A DNA stretch of 64,000 nt from Lama glama. Taxonomy: Eukaryota. The position numbers and the translations under genes are program-made. The DNA lies in NCBI GenBank assembly GCA_028534125.1, contig CM052816.1, forward strand, positions 83,082,001 through 83,146,000. The letters run 5' to 3'. Below are positions 5,337-64,000 of this stretch, piece by piece. Under the pieces are notes generated by a model. The model saw nothing but the letters and a program-made list of their open reading frames with translations. It was not told the origin of the DNA and searched no databases. Position 1 is the stretch's first letter. Every line of letters begins with the position of its first letter.

Positions 5337-5836
5337 NNNNNNNNNNNNNNNNNNNNNNNNNNNNNNNNNNNNNNNNNNNNNNNNNNNNNNNNNNNNNNNN
5401 NNNNNNNNNNNNNNNNNNNNNNNNNNNNNNNNNNNNNNNNNNNNNNNNNNNNNNNNNNNNNNNNNNNNNNNNNNNNNNNNNNNNNNNNNNNNNNNNNNNN
5501 NNNNNNNNNNNNNNNNNNNNNNNNNNNNNNNNNNNNNNNNNNNNNNNNNNNNNNNNNNNNNNNNNNNNNNNNNNNNNNNNNNNNNNNNNNNNNNNNNNNN
5601 NNNNNNNNNNNNNNNNNNNNNNNNNNNNNNNNNNNNNNNNNNNNNNNNNNNNNNNNNNNNNNNNNNNNNNNNNNNNNNNNNNNNNNNNNNNNNNNNNNNN
5701 NNNNNNNNNNNNNNNNNNNNNNNNNNNNNNNNNNNNNNNNNNNNNNNNNNNNNNNNNNNNNNNNNNNNNNNNNNNNNNNNNNNNNNNNNNNNNNNNNNNN
5801 NNNNNNNNNNNNNNNNNNNNNNNNNNNNNNNNNNNN
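5337..5836. other. Assembly gap (500 N)
   Basis: Exactly 500 N, likely a fixed-size scaffold join; it produces the X-filled ORFs. Confidence 0.99.
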
Positions 5837-5935
5837 AGTTGTCAAAAAACATAGCAAATCTTCATTTGAAATAGACTAAAGCTAGAAAGAGGAAAAATTC
5901 CATATGCTTTTAGCCTCATCACAATGCCATCAGTC

Positions 5936-20639: not shown

Positions 20640-20880
20640 AGACATGAAAATGTTTTACCTAGAACTGCCCCTCAGGGCAGAGGGAGCTGGGATCATCGCT
20701 AGCAGTATCTTGGGTGCCATGCTATTCCCTGATTCCTAGAGATCCAGCAAAGACCATTCCTTACCGTCATTCCTCCATCCCTTACTGCAGTTTTATTTAC
20801 GTGTAACTCTGTGTAATAAAACTTTCTTGCTTAAAATATCTAGATTGCTTTCTATTTTCCTGACCAAAACTGACGAATAC
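20640..20880 (+). mobile_element. Old ERVL-class LTR 3' fragment
   Basis: aataaaactttcttgcttaaaatatctaga..tttctattttcctgacc..actgacgaataca resembles ERVL LTR ends. Confidence 0.5.
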
Positions 20881-21758
20881 AGTGATCATTATTTGTGGGT
20901 AAGGTTTAAGTTGAGGTAAGGGAGTACATTCAACTGTTTGAAATGAAATGTCATTTCCAAGGAAATTTAAAAAATATATGTTTTTGTTCAACTTATGATT
21001 TTTTATGAAACATAATGTACTCACTTGATTTTAATCAATTTTTGCCATAAATCTATTTTCTCAATGGCCTCTAATTTAATTTTGGATATGAGATACTTGC
21101 AAGTGTTCCGTTATACAACTGTCTGAACAAATCATGAGCAAAAGCAATTTCAAATGTGTGTTAAGTGTATCTCACTATATAAAAACTTGGATTATCCTGT
21201 CAAAATTGGCCTACCAAATTTAATGTCCTCTTCAAACCTTAATACTACTCTCTCACAAAATATAAATCTGATGATAAAATATAGGGAAGCAAAATAGCCC
21301 TAGTGTTTTCTTTCCTAAAATGCATTACCTAACCATTGCAGAACTTCTGCTTGTTCAAAAATGAAGGTTTATTTTTAGAGGCTCTGTAAATTTTGTAGAG
21401 GGATTTTGTTTTAGCTGCTGGCCCCTATATTTCTTAATCTTCAGAGATATTTTTCCATATTTTATTATAATATAAATTCTTATTAATGACTATTTTTTCA
21501 TAATTAAGTATTAAAATTATTGAATTATATGATAGTATATTTTAGGGTAACCATTAGGCAGTGACCCTAACTGTTATGATTTAGAGGATATACTTCGGTC
21601 AAGTCTACCAAACCCATTGAATAGTAAACCGGATTTTCATTGGCTTAGTCTGTATCAGATATGACTCATATCAGTGATCAGTTATTCATGTGGGTATGCT
21701 TCTTTGTAAGAGTAAATTATCCAAGTAACCAACAAGATGATGTCATTCTCTGGAACCA

Positions 21759-22201
21759 TGTATGGTCAGGCTATTCAAGGTGACTGCTCTCTTGCTCTCT
21801 GTACATTCCCTGCTCCACCAGTGTCTGCTTCACCTACACCCATCTCACGTGATTGACCTTCTTACACACTTGCTCCAGGCCCCAGCTAGTGATTGTTCTT
21901 ATCAAAGGAGTGGTAAGGAGTGTGTCCCTCTGCTGGTTTCCCTGGTAACAAATGAGCCAACCTGATGTCAATTCCTCCTATAACGGCTAACCTCCCCCAT
22001 CCCCTGGGAACTAAGTCTGCTGCTGTGTCCTGCCCTCCATCCACTGCTCGTGGTGGGGAGTCACTCCAGGACCTCGCTTCAGACAGGTTACCTCCCCAGC
22101 CCATTAAACTATTGATGTCTCTGTCACTGACTCGGGGCTCTTCCCTGGTCTTGAAGCTGGGCAAGTACAAGGCTTGTAGGTCTGTGGGGTGCCACGCAAC
22201 A
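21759..22201 (+). mobile_element. Solo LTR, copy 1 (lineage-specific, ERVL-class by 5-bp TSD)
   Basis: TG...CA ends; near TSD aacca/cacca; ATTAAA polyA-like signal; homologous end to end with 35086-35533. Confidence 0.85.
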
Positions 22202-22757
22202 CACCAGAATCAATGAGTCTGAAAACTTAAGATCCTCCTAAAAATACACTTAATGTGACACCTAGCCCTTATTTTTCCTGAAATTTGGAAAAATGAGTTT
22301 ACTCTATTCGCAAACTCTTCTTCCCATGTTATCCTCGGTAAGATGCTTTACTGTAGAAACTGACTAAACCAAACCCCAATTTATATATCTTTTCCCAAAG
22401 CACTTCTATTGTAAGAAAATTAAGAATATGCTCAGAAAGCAATTTGAGGATTGTGCATAATTACAACCACCATCTTGTAAGCATTTCTGCCATTTTTATT
22501 AGAAGAAATGTTTATAGTGATTGTAAACCTAGTTTTGCAGGTTCTGTGATATAGAGGTGGGAGAAAACTGGGGGCAGCCCTCAAAACATTGTGCTTCTTC
22601 ATTTGCATATTTGAGAACACAACAACCAAAAAATAACTATAATTTGGCACCTATAAATTACCAAACTCTTAGGTAGATTAACTGAGTTTAATGCTCGCAA
22701 CATTCCCTTATGGAATTAACTTCCGAAATTTACATGTGTGGAAAATGACACATGTAG

Positions 22758-29061: not shown

Positions 29062-29090
29062 TATTAATTGCATATATGCTGGTGTTCAGA
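29062..29090. repeat. 29-bp dispersed direct repeat, copy 1
   Basis: tattaattgcatatatgctggtgttcaga, identical to 32069-32097. Confidence 0.95.
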
Positions 29091-30510
29091 GCAACACATT
29101 TTAAGATGTAAGATGTAATTACTTACCAGCCAAAGAATAAAATGTTGTGGTGCAGATGTAATTAATACAGAATTTCTATCTTCCAGCTGTGCCAGATTTT
29201 TATCTTCAGATGTATTAGATGTATGCACAGCAATTGCATAGCCCAGGGCCAGGCCAATAACTCCCTTACCACATGTTGCTGCGAAAATTCATTGCAAGAA
29301 ACCAAAAATAGAACATTTTTGTTGCTACTTGTGGTCTTTGGTAAAGACCAAGTTGCATTTAGTATCTCTGAGGTACAAGGAGCAACATTGGGAAGACCAT
29401 GTTAGGGAAGAATTGAAAAGAACTTTTTTAGTGTCGTAAGCTATGTGAATGTAGAGCTTTGACTTGTCCGTGTAAAATTGGGAGCTTTGAGAATATCCTG
29501 ATTTCAAATCTGTGACATTCTTGTAAATAGATGATTCTTGCTTAATTTAGTGAATTACTCTATATAAATAAAGATTGAATATTTTGCAACAAATTTGTGT
29601 AAAAGCATAATTTTAAACATAATTTATTGTTTTTAATTTTAAGAAATCAATAGTAACATTATGCTGTTGCTTTGAGAAATGTTAGGAAAATATGCACTGT
29701 TGGAATTATTGGATTGTTAACTCCTATAGCCTCTTCCTGGCTCTCGTTTTTCTCCTCACAAAATATTTTTTAACCTTCAGACATTTATGATTATTTCAGA
29801 ATCTAAAAAAATAGTTATTTAGTTATTGTTTGTTTTAGATATTAATCAAGTTTTTAAGGTTTATGAATCTGAATAAAAATAACAAGTTCAATACATTTTA
29901 TATGTAATTGATGCAAGTAAAATTATTCAAAATATCACTTTAAATTCAAAATAGATATTAGCTAACCACTAACATGTGTTTGGAAACTTGTTCAACAGAA
30001 CTTTAAATGTTTCACTTCTATTCAGTTCTTCACTTCTAGTACTGTTCAGTGTTTCTTGACAGACCACATAAATTCCAGCTTATTAAACTTTTTTCTATTA
30101 CAAAATTCTGAAAATTTGTCAATCTGTTATTTTGGTATATACATGAGTAGCATTATACCAAGAATCTGGCAGAATCAAGTGTCTGGAAATCATTTAATAT
30201 TTCAGATTTTGACTCCTCTTATGCCAAATACATTCTTTTAAATATGTGTAAAGTTTTTGTCACTTTCTCATTAAGTATTTCTGCAGTTGCATTAAAGCTT
30301 TTGCCCAGGATAGTGATGCTGTCATAGGCCTGACAACACATTTTCTTCAAATAATGATGACTGTACTGAAGTTTGGGGATTTCTTTTAACTGTTTGTATT
30401 ATACTTACCATCTTCAGTATCAGTTGAAAACCAAGAAACATTTTGGGTGGACTCTCTGGGTATCATATCACATTGAGAGACATTACTTAAATATATGGAC
30501 ACAGTTATCA

Positions 30511-32068: not shown

Positions 32069-32136
32069 TATTAATTGCATATATGCTGGTGTTCAGATAT
32101 CATCAAATATTAAGATAATATCATCAAATATTAAGA
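32069..32136. repeat. 29-bp dispersed repeat copy 2, followed by a 19-bp tandem duplication (period 21)
   Basis: 32069-32097 is identical to 29062-29090; atatcatcaaatattaaga occurs at 32097-32115 and 32118-32136. Confidence 0.95.
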
Positions 32137-32344: not shown

Positions 32345-32758
32345 GTTTCTCAGACATATACTCCAAATTTGGGATCTTTGCGCTGGTTGCCCTTCCTCCT
32401 GAAATGTTTTCCTCCATGTATCTGTCAGGCAAAGTCTTTTACCTCCTTCAAGCCTTTGCTCAAATATCACTTTCACAAGAAAGGCCTATATAAAATTGCT
32501 CACTGTACCTTTTCCATCTTTGACCAAGCCTGGCACTCCCAATTCACCTTACTTGGAAATATGAATTTATTTTTACCATTAGTGTTATCATCAGTTATCG
32601 TAACATGTAAGTTATTTACTTAGTACCTGTATTGTTTAATGTCTCCATACTCCACAAGGCAGGAATAATTTATCTTGTTTAGTGCTGTGTCTCATGCTTC
32701 TAGAATAGGTCCCAGCATGTAGTAGGGGATTAATATGTGTAAGTAAATGAATGAATCA
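32345..32758 (+). mobile_element. LINE-2 3' end
   Basis: acctccttcaagcctttgctcaaatatcac..tagaataggtcccagcatgtagtagg..tgaatgaat tail. Confidence 0.75.
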
Positions 32759-32797
32759 ATTTAAGAATAAATGAAGGAATTACTGAAACCCTAGACT

Positions 32798-33213
32798 TGT
32801 TACTGAACCGAACCAAATTTGGGTCCACTTGCCCATGCACAGTAAAGCCAATCTGCTGACATCGGGTTGTGGTAAAGGAAAGTGCAGCATTTATTGTCAA
32901 GACGCCCATACAAGAGGGATCAGGGCGGTTGCAGGGTATGTGATTATCTTGTACATAGTCCTCTGATTGGTTGATGGTGAGGTAACAGAGTGGTGTCACA
33001 GGGCTTAACACTCAATTCTTAGGCTCGAGGAGGCCTGGGGGCTGTGTGTTCATGTCCATCAAGTAAAGTCTTCCATTTGGGGGGGGGGGTTCACATCTGT
33101 GAAACAACTCAGGAAATGTGCATCAGATCCTGTTATCTGGGTACGTCTGAGAGGAGCTAAACCGAGGATATGGGGGAGGAGTCTGTTCCCAGAAAGGGTC
33201 CTGCTTGATTACA
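32798..33213 (-). mobile_element. ERV1-class solo LTR (lineage-specific)
   Basis: TGT...ACA ends; 4-bp TSD gact (32794-97, 33214-17); tttatt (antisense polyA) and ctgattggtt (antisense CCAAT). Confidence 0.85.
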
Positions 33214-33975
33214 GACTCTCTAAGTGGCACATTGGAAATTTTTATTAAAGATGAAAATGTGTATTTATATTTTGATATACTTTTGAAATAATCAAAGTTA
33301 ACAGAAAAAAGAAAAACATATGTGAACCATATGGACCACAGAACAATTTTGGAGAGCTGAAAGGAAAATAAATACCAACAAGAATAATTTCTTTCTGTTA
33401 ACAGGCGGAATGGAAACACAAATGTAGAGAGTGTAAATGAAGTATTCTGTCGCTTTATGCCACTGTATATAATTTAGTTTCTACATTAAAAAAAGATCAC
33501 ATTATTGCTGTTACCCTTACGAAATAGAACTGTGAATTATATTTCAGAATTTACATACCTGATTTTTAAAATTTTAAGTTTTGTGAACCTTTCAGTTGCA
33601 AACTTCCGTGATGTTCAGTAGATAACACACATCCTTCTTTACTTTCTCTAGAGGTTGTGTTTATACAAGAGGCCAACTTTCTAATTAAGATATTTCCCAA
33701 AGTGAAAACACCTGGGCGTATCGAAAGTCTTTCCAAAAGTCAATAATCAATTTGAGGTGAAATTAGCCTTGAAAAACCCTTAATTTGGTACCATATTCAA
33801 GAAATACTTTCAGCCTCATAGTAAGTCCAGCCCAGCCCATTTTTTTCTTGAGTGCAGAGAGAGATCAGTACTCCCTCAGCTGAATATCAAGTGAAGTATT
33901 TGGAATTTTGGAGTCTAGTTTCGTACAAAATCGTAATAAAATACCTTTACACAATATGACCATATTCAGATTGGT

Positions 33976-33993
33976 GAAACGAAAGTGAAAACT
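33976..33993 (+). promoter_or_regulatory. Tandem IRF-E/ISRE motif (GAAACGAAAGTGAAAACT)
   Basis: Three GAAA cores at IRF spacing, about 150 bp upstream of a TATA box, in non-repeat DNA. Confidence 0.65.
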
Positions 33994-34140
33994 GAGGGGA
34001 AAGACAGTCCTGTTTTCTATCTCAAGAGATCTCACAAGTGTCTGTTCATTGAGTGGAAGTACAGATGGAAATGGACACACTTTGAAGAGCCTTTCTCTGT
34101 TTCTCTCTGTGTCTCTTTCCCCTCTGCCTCCAGCCCTTAG

Positions 34141-34147
34141 TATAAAG
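34141..34147 (+). promoter_or_regulatory. TATA box of candidate Pol II promoter
   Basis: TATAAAG in a locally GC-richer segment, after a CT tract and about 160 bp before a consensus 5' splice site. Confidence 0.55.
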
Positions 34148-34169
34148 ACTGCAGCACTGAGGTCCCTAT

Positions 34170-34303
34170 TAAGGCAGGAGAAGCTTGATTCTCTCCACCC
34201 CCCAGAGAAGTGTGTGTGGGGTGGGGGTTGTTTCTGAAGGTGCTGATTTCCTGCAGCTCTCCCCTTCATAACAGGCCGTGCAGTCAACCTCTCACGGTTT
34301 CAG
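34170..34303 (+). other. Candidate non-coding first exon of an unidentified gene or lncRNA
   Basis: Start inferred about 30 nt after the TATA; ends at CAG|GTAAGG donor (34301-34309); contains no ATG. Confidence 0.45.
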
Positions 34304-34437
34304 GTAAGGCCCTGCACCTATTGTCCTCTGGGGACAGTGGTATTTTGTAAAAGGGCTGGGGAATAAAGAAATGCTTGACAACACACAGTTAAAACTTCAG
34401 CATTAACAGTGTTTATTCTCTCATAAACACTGGTGGC

Positions 34438-34797
34438 TGTAATGGACTGAATGTTTGCATGCTCCCAAATTCATGTGTTGAAAACCCTAATCCCCAGTGT
34501 GATGGTATTAGGAAGTGAGTCTTTTGAAACTTCATTCGATCATAAGCGTGGATCCCTCATGATGCGATTAGGGTCGTTCTAAGAAGAGAGCTCAGTTCCC
34601 CTCAAACTACTCTCTGCCTTGTGAGGATACAAGAAGGCAGCCATCTGCTAACTAGGGAGCAGGCTCTCACCAGACAGCAGATCTGCCAGCATCTCTATCT
34701 TGGACTTCCCAGCCTCCAGAACTGGGACATATATTTTTGCTCTTTAAACCACTCAGTTTACGGTAATTTATCATAGCAGACCAATCTAACTACGACA
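34438..34797 (+). mobile_element. MLT1A/A0 MaLR solo LTR
   Basis: atggactgaatgtttg..cccaaattcatgtgttgaaa..tcttggacttcccagcctccagaact; near TSD gtggc/gtggg. Confidence 0.85.
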
Positions 34798-35085: not shown

Positions 35086-35533
35086 TGTATGGGCAGGGCA
35101 CTCAAGGTGGCTTCTCTCTTGCTCCCTGTACATCCCCTGCTCATTCAACCAGTGCCTGCTTCAGCTACACCTACTCGCATGACTGATCTTCCTACATACT
35201 TGCTCCAGGCCCCAGCTAGTGAGTGTTCTTTTCAAAGGGGCAGTGAGGGGTGTGCCCCTCTCCTGGTTTCTCTGGTAACAAATGAGCCAACCTGACATCA
35301 ATTCCCCCTATAATTGCTAATCTCCCTCTGCCCCCAGGAGCAAAGACCACCGCCACATCCTGCTCTCAGTCCACTACACACAGCGGGGTGTCACTCGAGG
35401 ACCTTACTTCAGACCAGTTAGCTCCCTTCCTCCATTAAACCATTGATGTCTCTGTCACTGACTCTGAACTCTTTCTTTGGTCTTGACGCTGGGCGAGTAC
35501 ACGGCTTGTAGGCCTGTGGGGTGCAGCCCAACA
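35086..35533 (+). mobile_element. Solo LTR, copy 2 (same family as 21759-22201)
   Basis: TG...CA ends with perfect 5-bp TSD catgg (35081-85, 35534-38). Confidence 0.9.
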
Positions 35534-36009
35534 CATGGCATAACATGCCTTTTTAAAAATAGTGAGTTTCTCCTGAATTTACTGACTGGAAGAGGCTTCC
35601 TTGATGATTTAAATAACAAGAGTAAGTTGCAGTGAATTGTATATATAGTATTATATCTTCAGGTAAATCACAAACAAATAAGCAAAGTCCAAAACTTAAA
35701 TAATTTTATAACTCTGAAGATGTATTTAAAAGGAAATATATTGAGCTAGTAACACTGTTTATAGAAAGGAGGTGAGAAAGGGCAAATACAGATGGAGAAA
35801 GAGGTTAGATTATAACAAAAAAAATTGAAAGAGCTCAAAAATATACAGCTATACAGGTGCTGTTTAAGTTGCAAAATTTTAAAAATTTATATACACATGT
35901 CTTTATATACATATGAACATAGCATGCCGTGTGAGGGTTAGATGACTTAATCTTGTTACTTTCAAACACGATATTTTTTCATTAACTAAAAACTGATGTG
36001 CATTTAAAA

Positions 36010-36095
36010 AAATTTTATTCATTTATTTATTTTCATTGAATTATAGTTCATTTACAATGTTGTGTTAATTTCTGGTGTACAGCATAGTGATTCAT
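36010..36095 (-). mobile_element. Very short young L1 3' terminus
   Basis: attgaattatagttcatttacaatgttgtgttaatttctggtgtacagcatagtgattca, same family as 30897 and 43027. Confidence 0.8.
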
Positions 36096-36349
36096 TTTTA
36101 ATTAACACAAGACTGCGCTGATGGAAAAAATAACTTTAACCATATTGTATGGTATAATCTTATTTACTTATGTGTATACGATGCATAATTTCTAAGTTTT
36201 CTATAGTTTTATTTTTAATTTATATATTAATTAAGTGAATAATGCAAATAGAACAGTGAAATATTATTTCACTAAAATATAAAAAAAGGAAATTTGGAAA
36301 ATCTCTAAAAATTGAGAGAAATTCTTTTGGGGGTAGCAGTGATTTGATG

Positions 36350-36826
36350 TTAAAAGGAACCAGCGTGCTATATTTAGTAAAAACGTGATTCAGTTTCAGA
36401 CAATGACACCTGACCCTCCCTGCATCCATTCTAGTTTTTATATGCCAGTTGGAAGTGGTTCATCATGGAATTTACATGTAAGTGTATGGTTATTGAATCA
36501 TTCTGCGCTAGGTTTCAGTTGCCAGGTGAATCTAAGTTGAATTGTGTTTGTGTTGTGGATGAAATGTGCTGTTGTCAAGCCTTCTAACTAGAGAGCGAAT
36601 TACTGTTTGTCTTAGGAAGATGTATGTAGTGAGTTGTATCCGCTTGTCCATATAAGAAGGTAAACTTTATTTCTGCCTTTTCAATATCTTACCAGATCGC
36701 CTTCGATGTGCAGCACAGTCTAGTTTAGTGCTTATTCAATAATAAAAGTATTTTATTCTTAAACTACCTTTGTTAGACAATTTCTGGAGTTAGAGAAAGA
36801 TTTTTTACATTATATTTTCCCCACAC
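36350..36826 (+). mobile_element. MER110-like old ERV1 LTR
   Basis: tgcttattcaataataaaa..ctacctttg..agatttttt..attatattttccccaca 3' end; 5' boundary uncertain. Confidence 0.45.
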
Positions 36827-45100: not shown

Positions 45101-46369
45101 GTATAAACAGCAATTAATTTTCAGAAACCTATTTAGAGTAATTCAATTACATGTATCTTGACTAATATTTTACCAAATGACATCTAAACTTACAAAAAGA
45201 TAGTCTAACTTTTGTGGAGATCATTGTATGTTTTGTTTTGTATAAATACACTTCTTTTGTATGTTTTGCTTAGGAATTTTTTCCCACATTCAAACTGTTT
45301 TAACTATTTTTCATACCATTATGTGTGTATCTTTCAGTCTTTTTAATTGCTGCATAGTATTTTGTAGTTTTCTGTATTATAATTTATCTAATCCTTTCAA
45401 ATTTGGTCATTTAGGTTGTTTTTATATATTTATATTTATAAGCAAAGTTAGATGAAAGCTTTTATCTGACTCTATCTGCAGATATTTCTCTAGGAAAGTA
45501 AGTGAAATATGGAATTTTTACTTTAATTGCAATATTTTAATGGCCTTTTTTTTCCCTTAAATTTTTAGTTTTCTTTAGGATTTATCTTGGTCCTTCTCTT
45601 TTTGGCTATTCTTATTGGTGAGTGTTTTCTGACATTGTTTGTCCTTTATATTAGTGAATAAAGAATTCATTTAATTAATTTAGATAGTAGCTTTAAGATG
45701 TGCATTTTGAAATTACTTGGCCTAAACAATTTATTCTCTGAAGTAGAAGGCTGGATGCAGAGAGATACAAATGAATGGAATTTATAAAATATCAGGCTCT
45801 GATTAAAAGTGTTGAGTGTGTTGGCCAGAATTTACCTTAATTGCAGGTTTAAAATCAGACCCCAGCTGCTTCCAAGTCTCTGATCTGTTCAAGTCCACCA
45901 TCCCCCACTGATAAGATTTAGGAGAAGATGTGATGCAGCTTCATGATAAACGTTTTGAGGTTGATGGATGAAGAGAGAGAAGTCAATAATGCCTACATTT
46001 TATAATTTTCCAAGGTGCTAAAAACAGGCTCCCCTCTGAGACTCTTTCTGATTCAGTCCTTTAGGTAAATCTTGGGGCCCTTAAACGCAGCAGGAATATT
46101 GTATTTCACACAATCTTACGAACTCAGTTTTCTGAGAGCTGCATGGTGCTGTTCATTACCACTGAGAAAGGCCACCGCAGTGCGGTAATAAAAAGAGGAA
46201 GGCATTTGCCAAATCTAAGTGGCCTCAGATTTATTTTTTATGCCTTCAGAAGCATGGTCAGTGAACCAAATAAAATGATCTGTGGTTTGTCTTTGGGCAG
46301 CACAACTGTGCCAGCAAATATGAAACGAAGTTCACAGAAAAAGAAAAGTCTTCTGAATAGTTACTTTGT

Positions 46370-46545
46370 GGGGATTCTCAGTTTTGGCTGTACCTTGAAA
46401 TAATCTGCGAATCTGTCTCAAAAGATTGATTCCCAGGCCTATTTCAGACCATTTGATTCAGAATTCCTAGCGGTAGGTCCAGGTACTGGCGTATTTTATG
46501 GTTATCCCGATGATTCTTGTGCATAGCTGGCTTGGGAATCACTAT
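46370..46545. mobile_element. MER5-like hAT-Charlie element
   Basis: gattcccaggcct..tcagaattcctagcggtaggtccagg..gatgattctt..ttgggaatcact. Confidence 0.55.
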
Positions 46546-46671
46546 GGATTTGTGGATAAAGAGCAAACTTCCTGGCTTGGGAGACTCCGGAAATCTGTAC
46601 CAAGTAATTATGACTTTTCTCCATGTAAACAAATACTTCTTTTTGAGAAAGTGTTGCCTTTATCGGATTTG

Positions 46672-46674
<3 letters not shown>

Positions 46675-46708
<34 letters not shown>

Positions 46709-46714
46709 TGTGTG
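46675..46714. repeat. (TG)n microsatellite
   Basis: (TG)15 followed by an interrupted extension. Confidence 0.95.
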
Positions 46715-47399
46715 CTCCTGCTCCGCACTTGTTGTGGAGGATTCAAATTATAACAGTAATATTATATTGTAACGGCTTTTGCAATTCTCTCATATACTAG
46801 GATCCTGAACCCATACAAGGTAATTAATTTTTATGAAGATATTTTTTCTAGTCTTGTCCTGGGAAAAAATACTTAGGGACAGATACTCCTTCCTTAATAA
46901 CTTTCCATTTGTGGAGGGGTAAGGTAAGGGCAGACTGGCTTAGTTCATCTCAATAATATTAAAGTAACTCTATAATTAATGTAATAATTAATTAAAATAG
47001 CTCTCCAGTTAATCACTACAATTAACGTCATGTAGTACACCTCTCTCTTCTGTAACTCAGAAAAACTACTATGTTTTTGCATATTCAGGGATGTGGCTTT
47101 CTATTCTTGGGCTTGTCTCTTTATTATGTAATACTAGCCAACTTACACTTTTTAGTAGCTCGTCAAACTTTCTGAAATTGGAGGAGATACCCCATCCTAT
47201 ATTATTTTACCATTAATGTATGTATTTGTATTTCTAAAGTTTTATTCTAATTTTAATAATTAGATTCAATTCAGGAGTTCATGTATCTGGATCTACTATC
47301 TTGAAAGGAAGACATTCTTATTTAATTTTGTTTAATTGATTAAAACACATTTATTTACTTTTATTAAATATTTATTAATATAATGTGGTTTTATCTCAA

Positions 47400-60889: not shown

Positions 60890-62437
60890 GTTTTCTTTTT
60901 CTCTCTCAACACTTTAAATATTTCACCTCACTTTCTTCTTGCTTGTGTGGTTTCTGAGAAGTCACATGTAATCCTTATCTTTCTTCCTCTATAGGTAAGA
61001 CTCCTCCCCACCCCTCAGCTTCTTTCAGGATTTGTCTTTGAGTTTCCGTAGTTTGAAAATGATATGCCTAGGTGTACTTTTTTTTTGGCATGCATCCTTT
61101 TGGTGTTCTCTGAGCTTCCTGAATCTGTGGTTTGGTGTCTGATGTTAATTTGGGGGAAATTTTCAGTCCTTATTATTTCAAATATTTCTTCTCTTCCTTT
61201 CTCCCTTCTCTTTCTGTGTGTGTGTTACACCTTTTACAGTTGCCCCACAGTCCTTGGATAGTCTGTTCTTTTTCTTTTCAGTCTTTGTTCCCTTTGCTTT
61301 TCAGTTTTGGGGATTTGTGCTGACATAGCCTAAAGCTCAGAGATTCTTTCCTCAGCCATGTCCAGTCAACTGATAAGCCCATCAGAGATATTTTTAATTT
61401 CTGTTACAGTGTGTTTGTGTATTCTTTTTTTTATCTCTAGCATTTTGTTTTGGTTCTTTCTTAGGTTTTTCTTTTCTTTACTTATTACACGATCCATCTG
61501 TTCTTGCATACTGTCTACTTATTAGAGCTCTTAGCATATTTAATCATAGTTGTTTAAAATTCCTGGTCTGATAACTTCAACTTCTCTGCCATGTGTGGTT
61601 CTGATGCTTTCTCTCTTCGAATTGTGGCTTTTGCCTTTTAGCGCGCTTTGTAATTTTTTTTCTTAATAGCCAGACATGATTGACTGAGTTAAAAAGAACT
61701 GCTTTAAGTAGGCCTTTAGTGACAATGGTGAGGTGTGTGGGGAGGGGAAGCCTCGATAGCCGGTGATTCCTTCTCAGTCTTTTGGAGACCATATGCCTCT
61801 GGACTGCGAACTTCACAAGTGTTGCCCAGTCTTTTCTCCCCGCTGGAGTGAAACAGGATGGCTAGGATGAGCTGACGCTGGATATTCCCCTTCTCCAGGT
61901 CACTTAGGCTCGGATAATTCCTTAGCACGTTAGCCTTTGGTTAACTAGTTTCCCCTGAAGGCGGGTCTGGTTAAAAAGAACCTAGTGCTCCGGCTTGTTT
62001 GAAAGTGGTTCCTTTACCTTCCCCTGTTAGAAACATGAGGGCATTTTTCTTAGATGTTTACTGTGGGAACCTGGCTGAACTCCTGGAGGTAAATGTCACA
62101 GTATTGTGGGGACCCCTATGACTGAATCTCCTTGGAGTTTTTAACTTTCAGAATTATCCACACTGAGCCTCGAGAACGTCATGGATTACAGGGCAGGCTT
62201 TCCTTCTCCTGCGCTGGCTCCCTGGTGGAATATGCTCGGGTATCTCCCCTCAAGGAAGCCGTAACTTCCTGCGTTTGCTTATTGGTCTCTGCAGTCCTGG
62301 GGGCAGCAGTTTGTTCTGTGTGCCCCTCTCTTATGTATCCAAGAAGAGCCGTAGATTTTTGAGTCTGTTCAGCTTTTCACTTGTTAGGATGGAGTGGTGA
62401 CTTTGAAGCTTCTTTGCAGAACTGGAAACCGGAAGTC
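60890..62437 (-). mobile_element. L1MC/L1M4-type LINE-1 5' UTR plus ORF1 region
   Basis: Reverse strand starts gacttccggtttccagttc..gtcaccactccatcctaacaag..aaaagctgaaca (old L1 5' terminus); antisense ORF1 motif ggtgttctctgagcttcctgaatctgtggttt. Confidence 0.8.
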
Positions 62438-62719
62438 TGCTTGTACAACTTCCATGCCCTGGAGACTTCTCTGTGTTCTAGAGATGAAACAGTGAGTGAA
62501 TGCAGCTGGGGTGAGGTCTTCTGAGCCATAAAGGACAAGGTTAGGATGGGTGCAATAGAAGTGCTTCTGTGGATGCGACAGATATCAGCTTCTCTCCCCA
62601 CTGCCTGCAAACAATTCTAGATATTCTTGAAACTATCTCAAAACACTTGAACATACCATACTGAAGCACAGAAAACTGTTGGAGGGCTGGGCTGAGATCA
62701 AGATTCTTGTGTCATTCAT

Positions 62720-62870: not shown

Positions 62871-64000
62871 TGAAAGGACCTAAAAAAAATGTAAGTTATG
62901 ACAGTATGTTCTAGAAATTGTTTTATAAATGATATTAACATTTTTAAATAACCCTCTGATTAAACGAAACTCAGCACTTAATCCTGGATATTTCAATGTA
63001 GTATCCAGAGATATGCTTTGGTTTACACATATGCAGAGCTTTGCTGCTTTCAAATATACAGACATACCTCTAACAAGTGAAACTGACTAAAGGCAGAGAT
63101 GTTTATAGTTACCAAGTTTATTCAAGGACAGATCATTAAGAAGACTCTTCTCATGTGATGGTTGACCAGTGATATTCTCACATTCTGCAGTCACTGCTGG
63201 TTCTGAAATCGTTTTCGTGTTGTGCCACTTGGTCCGCACTTTTCTGCAAAAATCCCTTCTGACAGAACGACATCAAACGAAACCATGTTGTTTCCTTAAG
63301 CAAAAAGGACAGAGCTGTGGCTGGCCAGCCTTTACGAGTGCCAACAGCATTTCTTTCTAAAGCACCTGCTGTTACACATCAGCCTCTGTTGGCAAAGGAC
63401 ATAGACAATGACAGCAATTCTTTTTTATTATTATTCCTTTCCAGTATGTGAAAGCAGGGTAATGAATTTTATACAGGCAGCATTAATTTATGGCATGCAG
63501 ACAAGCACTTGCATCCTTAACCTCCAGACTCATGAATCGTAAATATTACTGTAGAAGGTAAGAGAACAAGTAGCTGCTATGGAAAGTAATTGACAGGCAA
63601 GACCACAAAAAGGATTCAGTTCCGAAGGTATTCACAATCACAGAACACTGGATGTGAAGCAGAAAATGAGATATGCACTCAGAAAAAGAAAACTAGTTAC
63701 AACAGACTCGCTCATCGTTTTATTTTTATCAGATACTTCTGTCGTTTTTTTCCCTGTCATTTTTCTAATCACATTTGATTTATGAAAATAAAATCTGATT
63801 TTTAAGAATTCCACATTCTGTTTATATGTAGGTCAACTAGGCAGATCTTACCCCCTACCCCTCTATAAAATGTATGCAATTAAATGCTTCCTTTGGTTCT
63901 TGTCCTGAGGTCCTGGTGATCACCTGTGAACATCCTGCAGTTTTATCCTCAGAAATGTTCAAGTTTTCAATACCAGTCTTTGTCACAGGGCTGTGTTGTC

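Follow-up and report, generated by a model that had tools for sequence, protein, structure and literature searches.

The central question raised by this locus is whether positions 33690-34310 of the window (the whole 64-kb stretch of llama DNA analysed here) contain the transcription start of an interferon-stimulated gene or of a long non-coding RNA (lncRNA). A sequence-only reading had proposed such a start from the succession, on the plus strand, of an interferon-factor (IRF) half-site, a tandem GAAA repeat, a CT tract, a TATA-like word and a splice donor. Our analyses lead us to favour, with a confidence somewhat short of even, an IRF-bound, CpG-poor, enhancer-like promoter from which an intergenic lncRNA with a spliced, non-coding 5′ exon would be transcribed, a candidate defined by the sequence features collected in table 1. 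A hybrid exon, used both as a first and as an internal one, possibly accounts for about half of the weight of this reading. The degrees of confidence expressed here for all readings are judgements, not computed values.

Table 1. Sequence features of the candidate promoter and exon (positions in the window).
Feature	Position	Strand	Remarks
CpG-retaining upstream block, not a CpG island	33401..34000		9 CpG against 3.0 expected; o/e 0.51; GC 34%
ETS-type motif ACGGAAGT	33602..33609	-	one of two exact matches in the window
Distal IRF half-site AAAGTGAAAAC (AAAGTGAAAA at 33699-33708)	33699..33709	+	identical 11 nt recurs at 33982-33992
Reverse CCAAT box adjoining the IRF site	33969..33974	-	weak; 17 such matches in the window
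Tandem IRF site GAAA-C-GAAA-GT-GAAAACT	33976..33993	+	reads as a pair of overlapping IRF dimer sites
Polypyrimidine tract ending in CAG, putative 3′ splice acceptor	34090..34133	+	rank 1 of 4180 AGs; 42-nt AG-free zone
Exon candidate, 170 nt	34134..34303	+	53% GC; lacks an ATG and a frame open from end to end
TATA-like TATAAAG	34141..34147	+	departs from TATAWAWR at one base; 8 nt inside the exon as set by the acceptor
Predicted transcription start, pyrimidine-purine step TA	34170..34171	+	30 nt after the start of the TATA-like word
GT/CACCC box GGGGTGGGG inside the exon	34218..34226	+	4 in the window
5′ splice donor CAG/GTAAGG, putative exon end at 34303	34301..34309	+	rank 2 of 3336 GTs
AATAAA	34362..34367	+	58 nt past the donor; a short unspliced RNA may end here

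The IRF component of the locus is as the sequence-only reading described it: the half-site near 33699 and the tandem repeat (GAAACGAAAGTGAAAACT, plus strand, 33976-33993) both lie where they had been placed, and the triple GAAA occurs nowhere else in the window. The two identical copies of AAAGTGAAAAC are 283 nt apart, the distal one upstream, a spacing that we noted post hoc. Within the tandem site, GAAAGTGAAAAC departs by one mismatch from the IRF-E consensus (GAAASYGAAASY) and may be counted as an IRF-E by pattern (the window has six such one-mismatch sites and no perfect one), and GAAANGAAASY is matched exactly, overlapping the IRF-E-like site. The loose ISRE core GAAANNGAAA (given as TTTCNNTTTC in PMC8361084) is perfect at 33981, one of 17 perfect occurrences in the window, where 251 sites match it with at most one mismatch. 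The full ISGF3 ISRE (RNGAAANNGAAACT) is matched with two mismatches at the tandem site; three sites in the window do better and 100, the tandem site included, do equally well. With one mismatch against two, the site appears closer to the IRF1/IRF2 type of element than to a strict ISGF3 ISRE. Its assignment to the IRF1/ISGF3 type stands for the IRF-E and the loose ISRE patterns and falls for the full ISGF3 one. No GAS site occurs within 33213-34437. The same type of GAAA repeat is also bound by IRF2, IRF4/8 and PRDM1, and interferon induction of the element, though likely, is therefore not required.

The basal promoter signals are more ambiguous. TATAAAG does lie at 34141, but TATAAAGA is one mismatch off the TATAWAWR consensus and is thus not a strict TATA-type core promoter box; moreover, TATAAA occurs at background frequency, and the window holds 152 perfect and 1358 one-mismatch matches to TATAWAWR. 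Pyrimidine-purine steps are frequent around the predicted start (three in 12 positions). The absence of ATG for about 135 nt before the donor is borne out, no plus-strand ATG being present between 34141 and the donor and the next one lying at 34371. By eye, a second TATA-like word, TATTAAGG, is seen at 34167-34174, followed 30 nt on by a CA step (34196/34197); it is probably due to chance.

The CT tract and the donor CAG/GTAAGG are both present as described. What had been missed is that the tract (34090-34130) terminates in CAG at 34131-34133. When splice sites are scored with approximate matrices, this is the best acceptor of the strand, and the pair delimiting 34134-34303 reaches a score of 20.1, the next unrelated pair one of 14.3. 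A clean YTNAY branch point was not found upstream of the acceptor at 34133. The exon candidate lies at the 99th GC percentile, within a 1.2-kb stretch devoid of repeat matches; as a first exon, it would begin near 34171. It does not look like an obligate first exon: its donor is strong, but its acceptor outranks every other AG. Given this top-ranked acceptor at its 5′ edge, the segment reads equally as an internal and as a first exon, and it displays the predicted sequence hallmarks of a hybrid first-internal exon, i.e. a strong acceptor and donor, no CpG island and promoter motifs nearby. The following 30 kb, which the sequence-only reading took to be intronic, yielded no convincing exon 2. 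Elsewhere in the window, the next best exon-like pair is at 20791-20915, a possible upstream exon, and further strong plus-strand donors are found at 46923, 51463, 55438 and 63557; upstream of the candidate, plus-strand donors are available at 20915 and 508. Strong donors of the form MAG/GTRAG number five on the plus strand and one on the minus strand of the window.

The window is AT-rich DNA of a mammalian type (CpG o/e 0.167), in which LTR- and L1-like pieces are abundant by eye; an assembly gap of 500 N occupies 5337-5837. The survival of CpGs had been cited in favour of a promoter at 33690-34310, where it is unremarkable: seven CpGs give an o/e of 0.24, a value equalled or exceeded by 23% of windows of the same size. 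An excess does exist upstream, at 33401-34000 (uncorrected Poisson p 0.003, and fifth place among sliding windows of 600 nt), in a block whose bounds were set after looking at the data. Neither stretch resembles a CpG island (GC >50% and o/e >0.6), GC and o/e being 0.43 and 0.24 in the former and 0.34 and 0.51 upstream. Four other blocks retain CpGs with an o/e of 0.36-0.63 (35800-36700, 46000-46900, 61400-62500 and 63200-63800). By eye, the one at 61.4-62.5 kb resembles the 5′ portion of an L1 in antisense orientation; the other three have a unique appearance and may represent additional regulatory elements.

The description of the locus as non-repeat DNA holds against the sequence of the window itself. 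A self-match search within the window returned nothing for 32700-34430, a profile of the MLT1 type built from three window copies has no match in the element, Rfam gives no match at E up to 1 for 33200-34430, and 33214-34437 has no tandem repeat except two short arrays. Among 34 alignments to LTR-like copies in the window, two scored marginally above 40 shuffles, against ~0.8 expected. Comparison with these copies thus lends no support to an origin of the element from an old LTR. With regard to a possible MER41-like, LTR-derived interferon-inducible element, the locus has no match in the rest of the window or in its LTR-like copies; an older repeat origin may nevertheless apply. As to the repeats themselves, 32798-33213 is a 416-nt solo LTR-like element bounded by TG...CA and with a target-site duplication of 4 nt (GACT); its AATAAA at 32895 suggests the minus strand, and it stops ~490 nt short of the distal IRF half-site. 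The segments 21759-22203 and 35086-35535, 13 kb apart, belong to one LTR-like family and are probably two separate insertions, being too diverged and having no internal sequence by eye. A segment of 46-48 nt occurs twice, 3 kb apart (29062-29107 and 32069-32116, as self-match intervals).

If the locus is transcribed, its product is likely to be non-coding. The stretch has neither a coding frame nor an overlap with a coding gene, as is usual for a lincRNA, its desert position (see below) being a deduced one. An ATG-started frame of 134 aa does run over the element on the minus strand (33868-34269) and is the second longest ATG ORF in the window; it has no homologue among proteins of 73-235 residues and no Pfam match, and is probably a chance frame. 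A 38-aa frame open into the donor gave three matches, all to tandem-repeat proteins scored by many weak stretches. Pfam searches with 258 frames (this one and 257 stop-free frames of at least 55 aa, those over one LTR just downstream of the exon being omitted) returned nothing at the cut-off and three sub-threshold matches on two frames, with a limited sensitivity, as L1-like fragments seen by eye gave no match and shorter exons escape. Words sampled from 33600-34450 (89 in total) were looked up in sequencing runs: among the 20 runs listed, four with RNA records hold a share of 0.08-0.19, four guessed to be RNA hold 0.18-0.24 and six of undeclared kind hold 0.71-0.89; the other six are unindexed raw reads. 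The shares expected are 0.125 for an exon at 34171-34303, 0.17 for 34134-34303 and 0.23 for an unspliced RNA reaching the poly(A) site, and the word share, silent on the part covered, on strand and on junction, carries no weight in our assessment. In metagenome contigs, a 23-nt degenerate pattern of the element found no match; a 19-nt pattern found ten, none of which has similar flanks, and these were set aside as chance matches, not orthologues.

The likely surroundings of the element can be deduced from the order of genes. TRIM52, SH3TC2, CD14, SLC22A4, SPEF2 and the window follow one another in the reverse of the order on CamDro3 chromosome 3 (on tentative gene assignments), and SPEF2 would be on the minus strand, judging from the relative position of its upstream exon and terminal module. 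With SPEF2 interpolated at ~25.6 Mb from human positions, the window would fall at ~21.1-21.8 Mb of CamDro3, i.e. 0.6-1.3 Mb before CDH6 (22.44 Mb), with its plus strand pointing away from that gene. This would put it into the gene desert on the upstream side of CDH6, in the camelid counterpart of human chromosome 5; in human, the locus would be expected on 5p, at roughly 29.5-30.5 Mb of the minus strand. The next coding gene on the same strand, presumably CDH9, would be more than 1 Mb away, as we take it from human positions. From this deduced location, an lncRNA is far likelier than a protein-coding interferon-stimulated gene. The alternative, ascending placement near PTGER4, C6 and PLCXD3 was rejected on the deduced strand of SPEF2. 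The interval between SLC22A4 and SPEF2 measures 57.75 Mb here against ~69.4 Mb in CamDro3, a ratio of 0.83 compared with 0.88-0.96 for other intervals, so that missing sequence or a rearrangement is possible. Coordinates on dromedary chromosome 3 are provided by Table S8 of PMC11513024: CDH18 at 14.4-14.8 Mb, CDH6 at 22.44-22.56 Mb (a row repeated in PMC11295981), PDZD2 at 22.8-23.2 Mb, BRIX1 at 25.0 Mb, DAB2 at 28.3-28.5 Mb, IRF1 at 95.1 Mb, TMCO6 at 101.6 Mb and RACK1 at 117.8 Mb; as the table comprises only genes overlapping copy-number regions, it cannot show an interval to be empty. The supplements of PMC7468183 and PMC10720651 contain none of the neighbour genes sought. LINC02064 and LINC02109 are human lncRNAs of this region; the literature passages found do not link either of them to interferon.

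How far could the arrangement be a product of chance? Each motif alone is near its chance level. In the window, a single GAAA[CG][CT]GAAA stands against 1.2-1.3 expected, three copies of AAAGTGAAA against 2.6-3.0 and 158 of TATAAA against 158.3; dinucleotide shuffling produced a triple GAAA in 13 of 100 cases and Markov-4 simulation in 28 of 100, and two other patterns from the initial scan are likewise at chance level. Their combination is rarer: the order IRF-E, TATAAA and MAG/GTRAG arose, in a post hoc test, in one of 300 Markov-5 simulations, and under looser IRF definitions in none and two of 300. This test employs TATAAA by a choice made after a stricter first version, with a TATAWAWR box, had found no match in the real window, and its result must be weighed against the number of windows screened, since one in 300 per window still yields several chance cases per chromosome. 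The best exon pair was matched in 1/100 and 3/100 simulated windows, and again very many windows were screened. A chance assembly, in which an IRF-like repeat with no factor bound, a TATAAA of the background and a pseudo-exon happen to coincide in non-functional desert DNA, would accord with the figures for the single motifs and for the exon pair, with the 17 perfect copies of GAAANNGAAA, and with the statement in PMC8361084 that most ISRE-like motifs are unbound (several thousand of the 2.5-3.1 million loosely defined ISREs near genes are bound). We nevertheless hold it to be unlikely, if with a real prospect of being right, as it has to accommodate the convergence, within ~900 nt, of the IRF cluster, CpG retention, the best acceptor, the second-best donor, a high GC content and 1.2 kb free of repeats.

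The remaining alternatives each explain a part of the locus. A distal IRF-bound enhancer, giving rise only to short unstable or unspliced RNA (ending, for example, after AATAAA at 34362) and acting on a distant gene such as CDH6 or on none, is an unlikely but sensible reading: the homotypic IRF sites are accompanied by ETS and CCAAT motifs, poly(A) signals are close by on both strands (plus, 34362; minus, 33246), and PMC8361084 places 70-80% of bound ISREs more than 3 kb from a transcription start. What it leaves unexplained are the best acceptor and the second-best donor of the strand flanking one segment. These, together with their pair score, the typical exon length and the upstream donors, are what would be expected if 34134-34303 were a purely internal non-coding exon of an lncRNA starting far upstream, in which case the TATA-like word would simply belong to the exon and the IRF site would be either incidental or part of an enhancer in the intron. 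We regard this as rather unlikely, for it abandons the IRF cluster and the upstream CpG retention to chance, lacks a clean branch-point motif and has to reckon with CT tracts being common in promoters. Highly improbable, finally, is that the exon is the non-coding first one of an interferon-stimulated gene that encodes a protein from exons beyond the window. The layout does resemble the promoters of such genes, and the placement is indirect, the short SLC22A4-SPEF2 interval leaving room for a rearrangement; against it stand the deduced position 0.6-1.3 Mb before CDH6, pointing away, the presumed distance of CDH9 and the lack of a detected coding exon in the window. The original proposal of an interferon-stimulated gene or lncRNA finds partial support: the order of IRF site, TATAAA and donor, rarer than chance in the post hoc test, speaks for a start, and of the two products the lncRNA is the likelier, the coding gene being improbable. 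The CT tract, being the top acceptor, means that the exon may be internal or hybrid.

Under the favoured reading of an IRF-controlled lncRNA promoter, IRF1/IRF2-type factors would bind the tandem GAAA site, possibly aided by the distal half-site and the ETS and CCAAT motifs; the second copy of AAAGTGAAAAC upstream and the upstream CpG retention both fit a regulatory element. Polymerase II would then initiate near 34171, 30 nt past the TATA-like box, or at the acceptor itself. U1 bound to the strong donor at 34303 may suppress the AATAAA 58 nt downstream, and the exon would be joined to a downstream one. With a top-ranked acceptor at its 5′ edge, the same exon could also be spliced in internally from an upstream start. 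Induction by interferon would be likely but not obligatory. A bolder variant, which we consider decidedly doubtful, is an interferon-switchable hybrid exon: at rest, a long desert lncRNA would include it as an internal exon, and IRF binding 140-160 nt upstream of the acceptor would make it the first exon of a short induced isoform, with the help of a TATA box lying within the exon.

Neither the type of element nor its mechanism would be new; interferon-induced lncRNAs (PMC7503479) and remote IRF1 sites (PMC5343312) are well known. With NRIR (lncRNA-CMPK2), the llama element would share a non-coding transcript under interferon/IRF control, features that are only proposed here; NRIR adjoins the interferon-stimulated gene CMPK2 and its induction is demonstrated (PMC7503479), whereas the llama element is a candidate by sequence in a deduced cadherin desert without an interferon-stimulated neighbour. 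Remote IRF1 enhancers offer another parallel. According to PMC5343312, IRF1 occupies numerous remote sites, and the motif is present in 70% of its isolated peaks; tandem GAAA far from annotated genes and without a GAS site is common to such enhancers (PMC5343312, PMC8361084) and to our element, but they are defined by ChIP signal and it by its sequence, in which strong paired splice sites are added. The classical promoters of CXCL10 and the GBP genes, with their ISRE or IRF-E, have an IRF site ~150 nt upstream of a TATA-like box, as here; unlike them, the llama element has no coding exon or host gene found and no nearby GAS, and its TATA is imperfect.

A further parallel is with hybrid first-internal exons. 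These are common: PMC11797052 counts ~80,000 of them in human, which have a strong pyrimidine tract but lack CpG islands and whose starts cluster at or near the acceptor, and has them arise by the gain of factor sites or of a TATA box near internal exons. This description fits the layout at 34134-34303: in both, the 5′ edge has a strong acceptor with its pyrimidine tract, a CpG island is absent, and core-promoter and factor motifs lie near the acceptor. Hybrid exons are defined by reads showing both uses and the llama candidate by its sequence features, and in the NISCH hybrid exon (PMC11797052) the TATA is upstream of the exon, whereas in llama it is 8 nt inside the acceptor.

The 15-nt IRF site appeared in no paper found by a narrow literature search, thin on subscription journals, so that an existing annotation could be missed; titles and the beginnings of abstracts concerning interferon lncRNAs between CDH9 and CDH6, or in camelids, mentioned nothing on the element in the same kind of search. 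The element is a reasonable, unproven candidate, and as such it settles no open question. Non-coding annotation of camelids is thin. If real, the element would bring an IRF-controlled lncRNA promoter, hitherto unannotated, to a group of livestock whose interferon responses are under study, and it would offer a compact test case for a splice acceptor overlapping a core promoter. Should the switchable hybrid exon prove true, and be camelid-specific or act on CDH6, it would tie interferon signalling to a cadherin gene desert.
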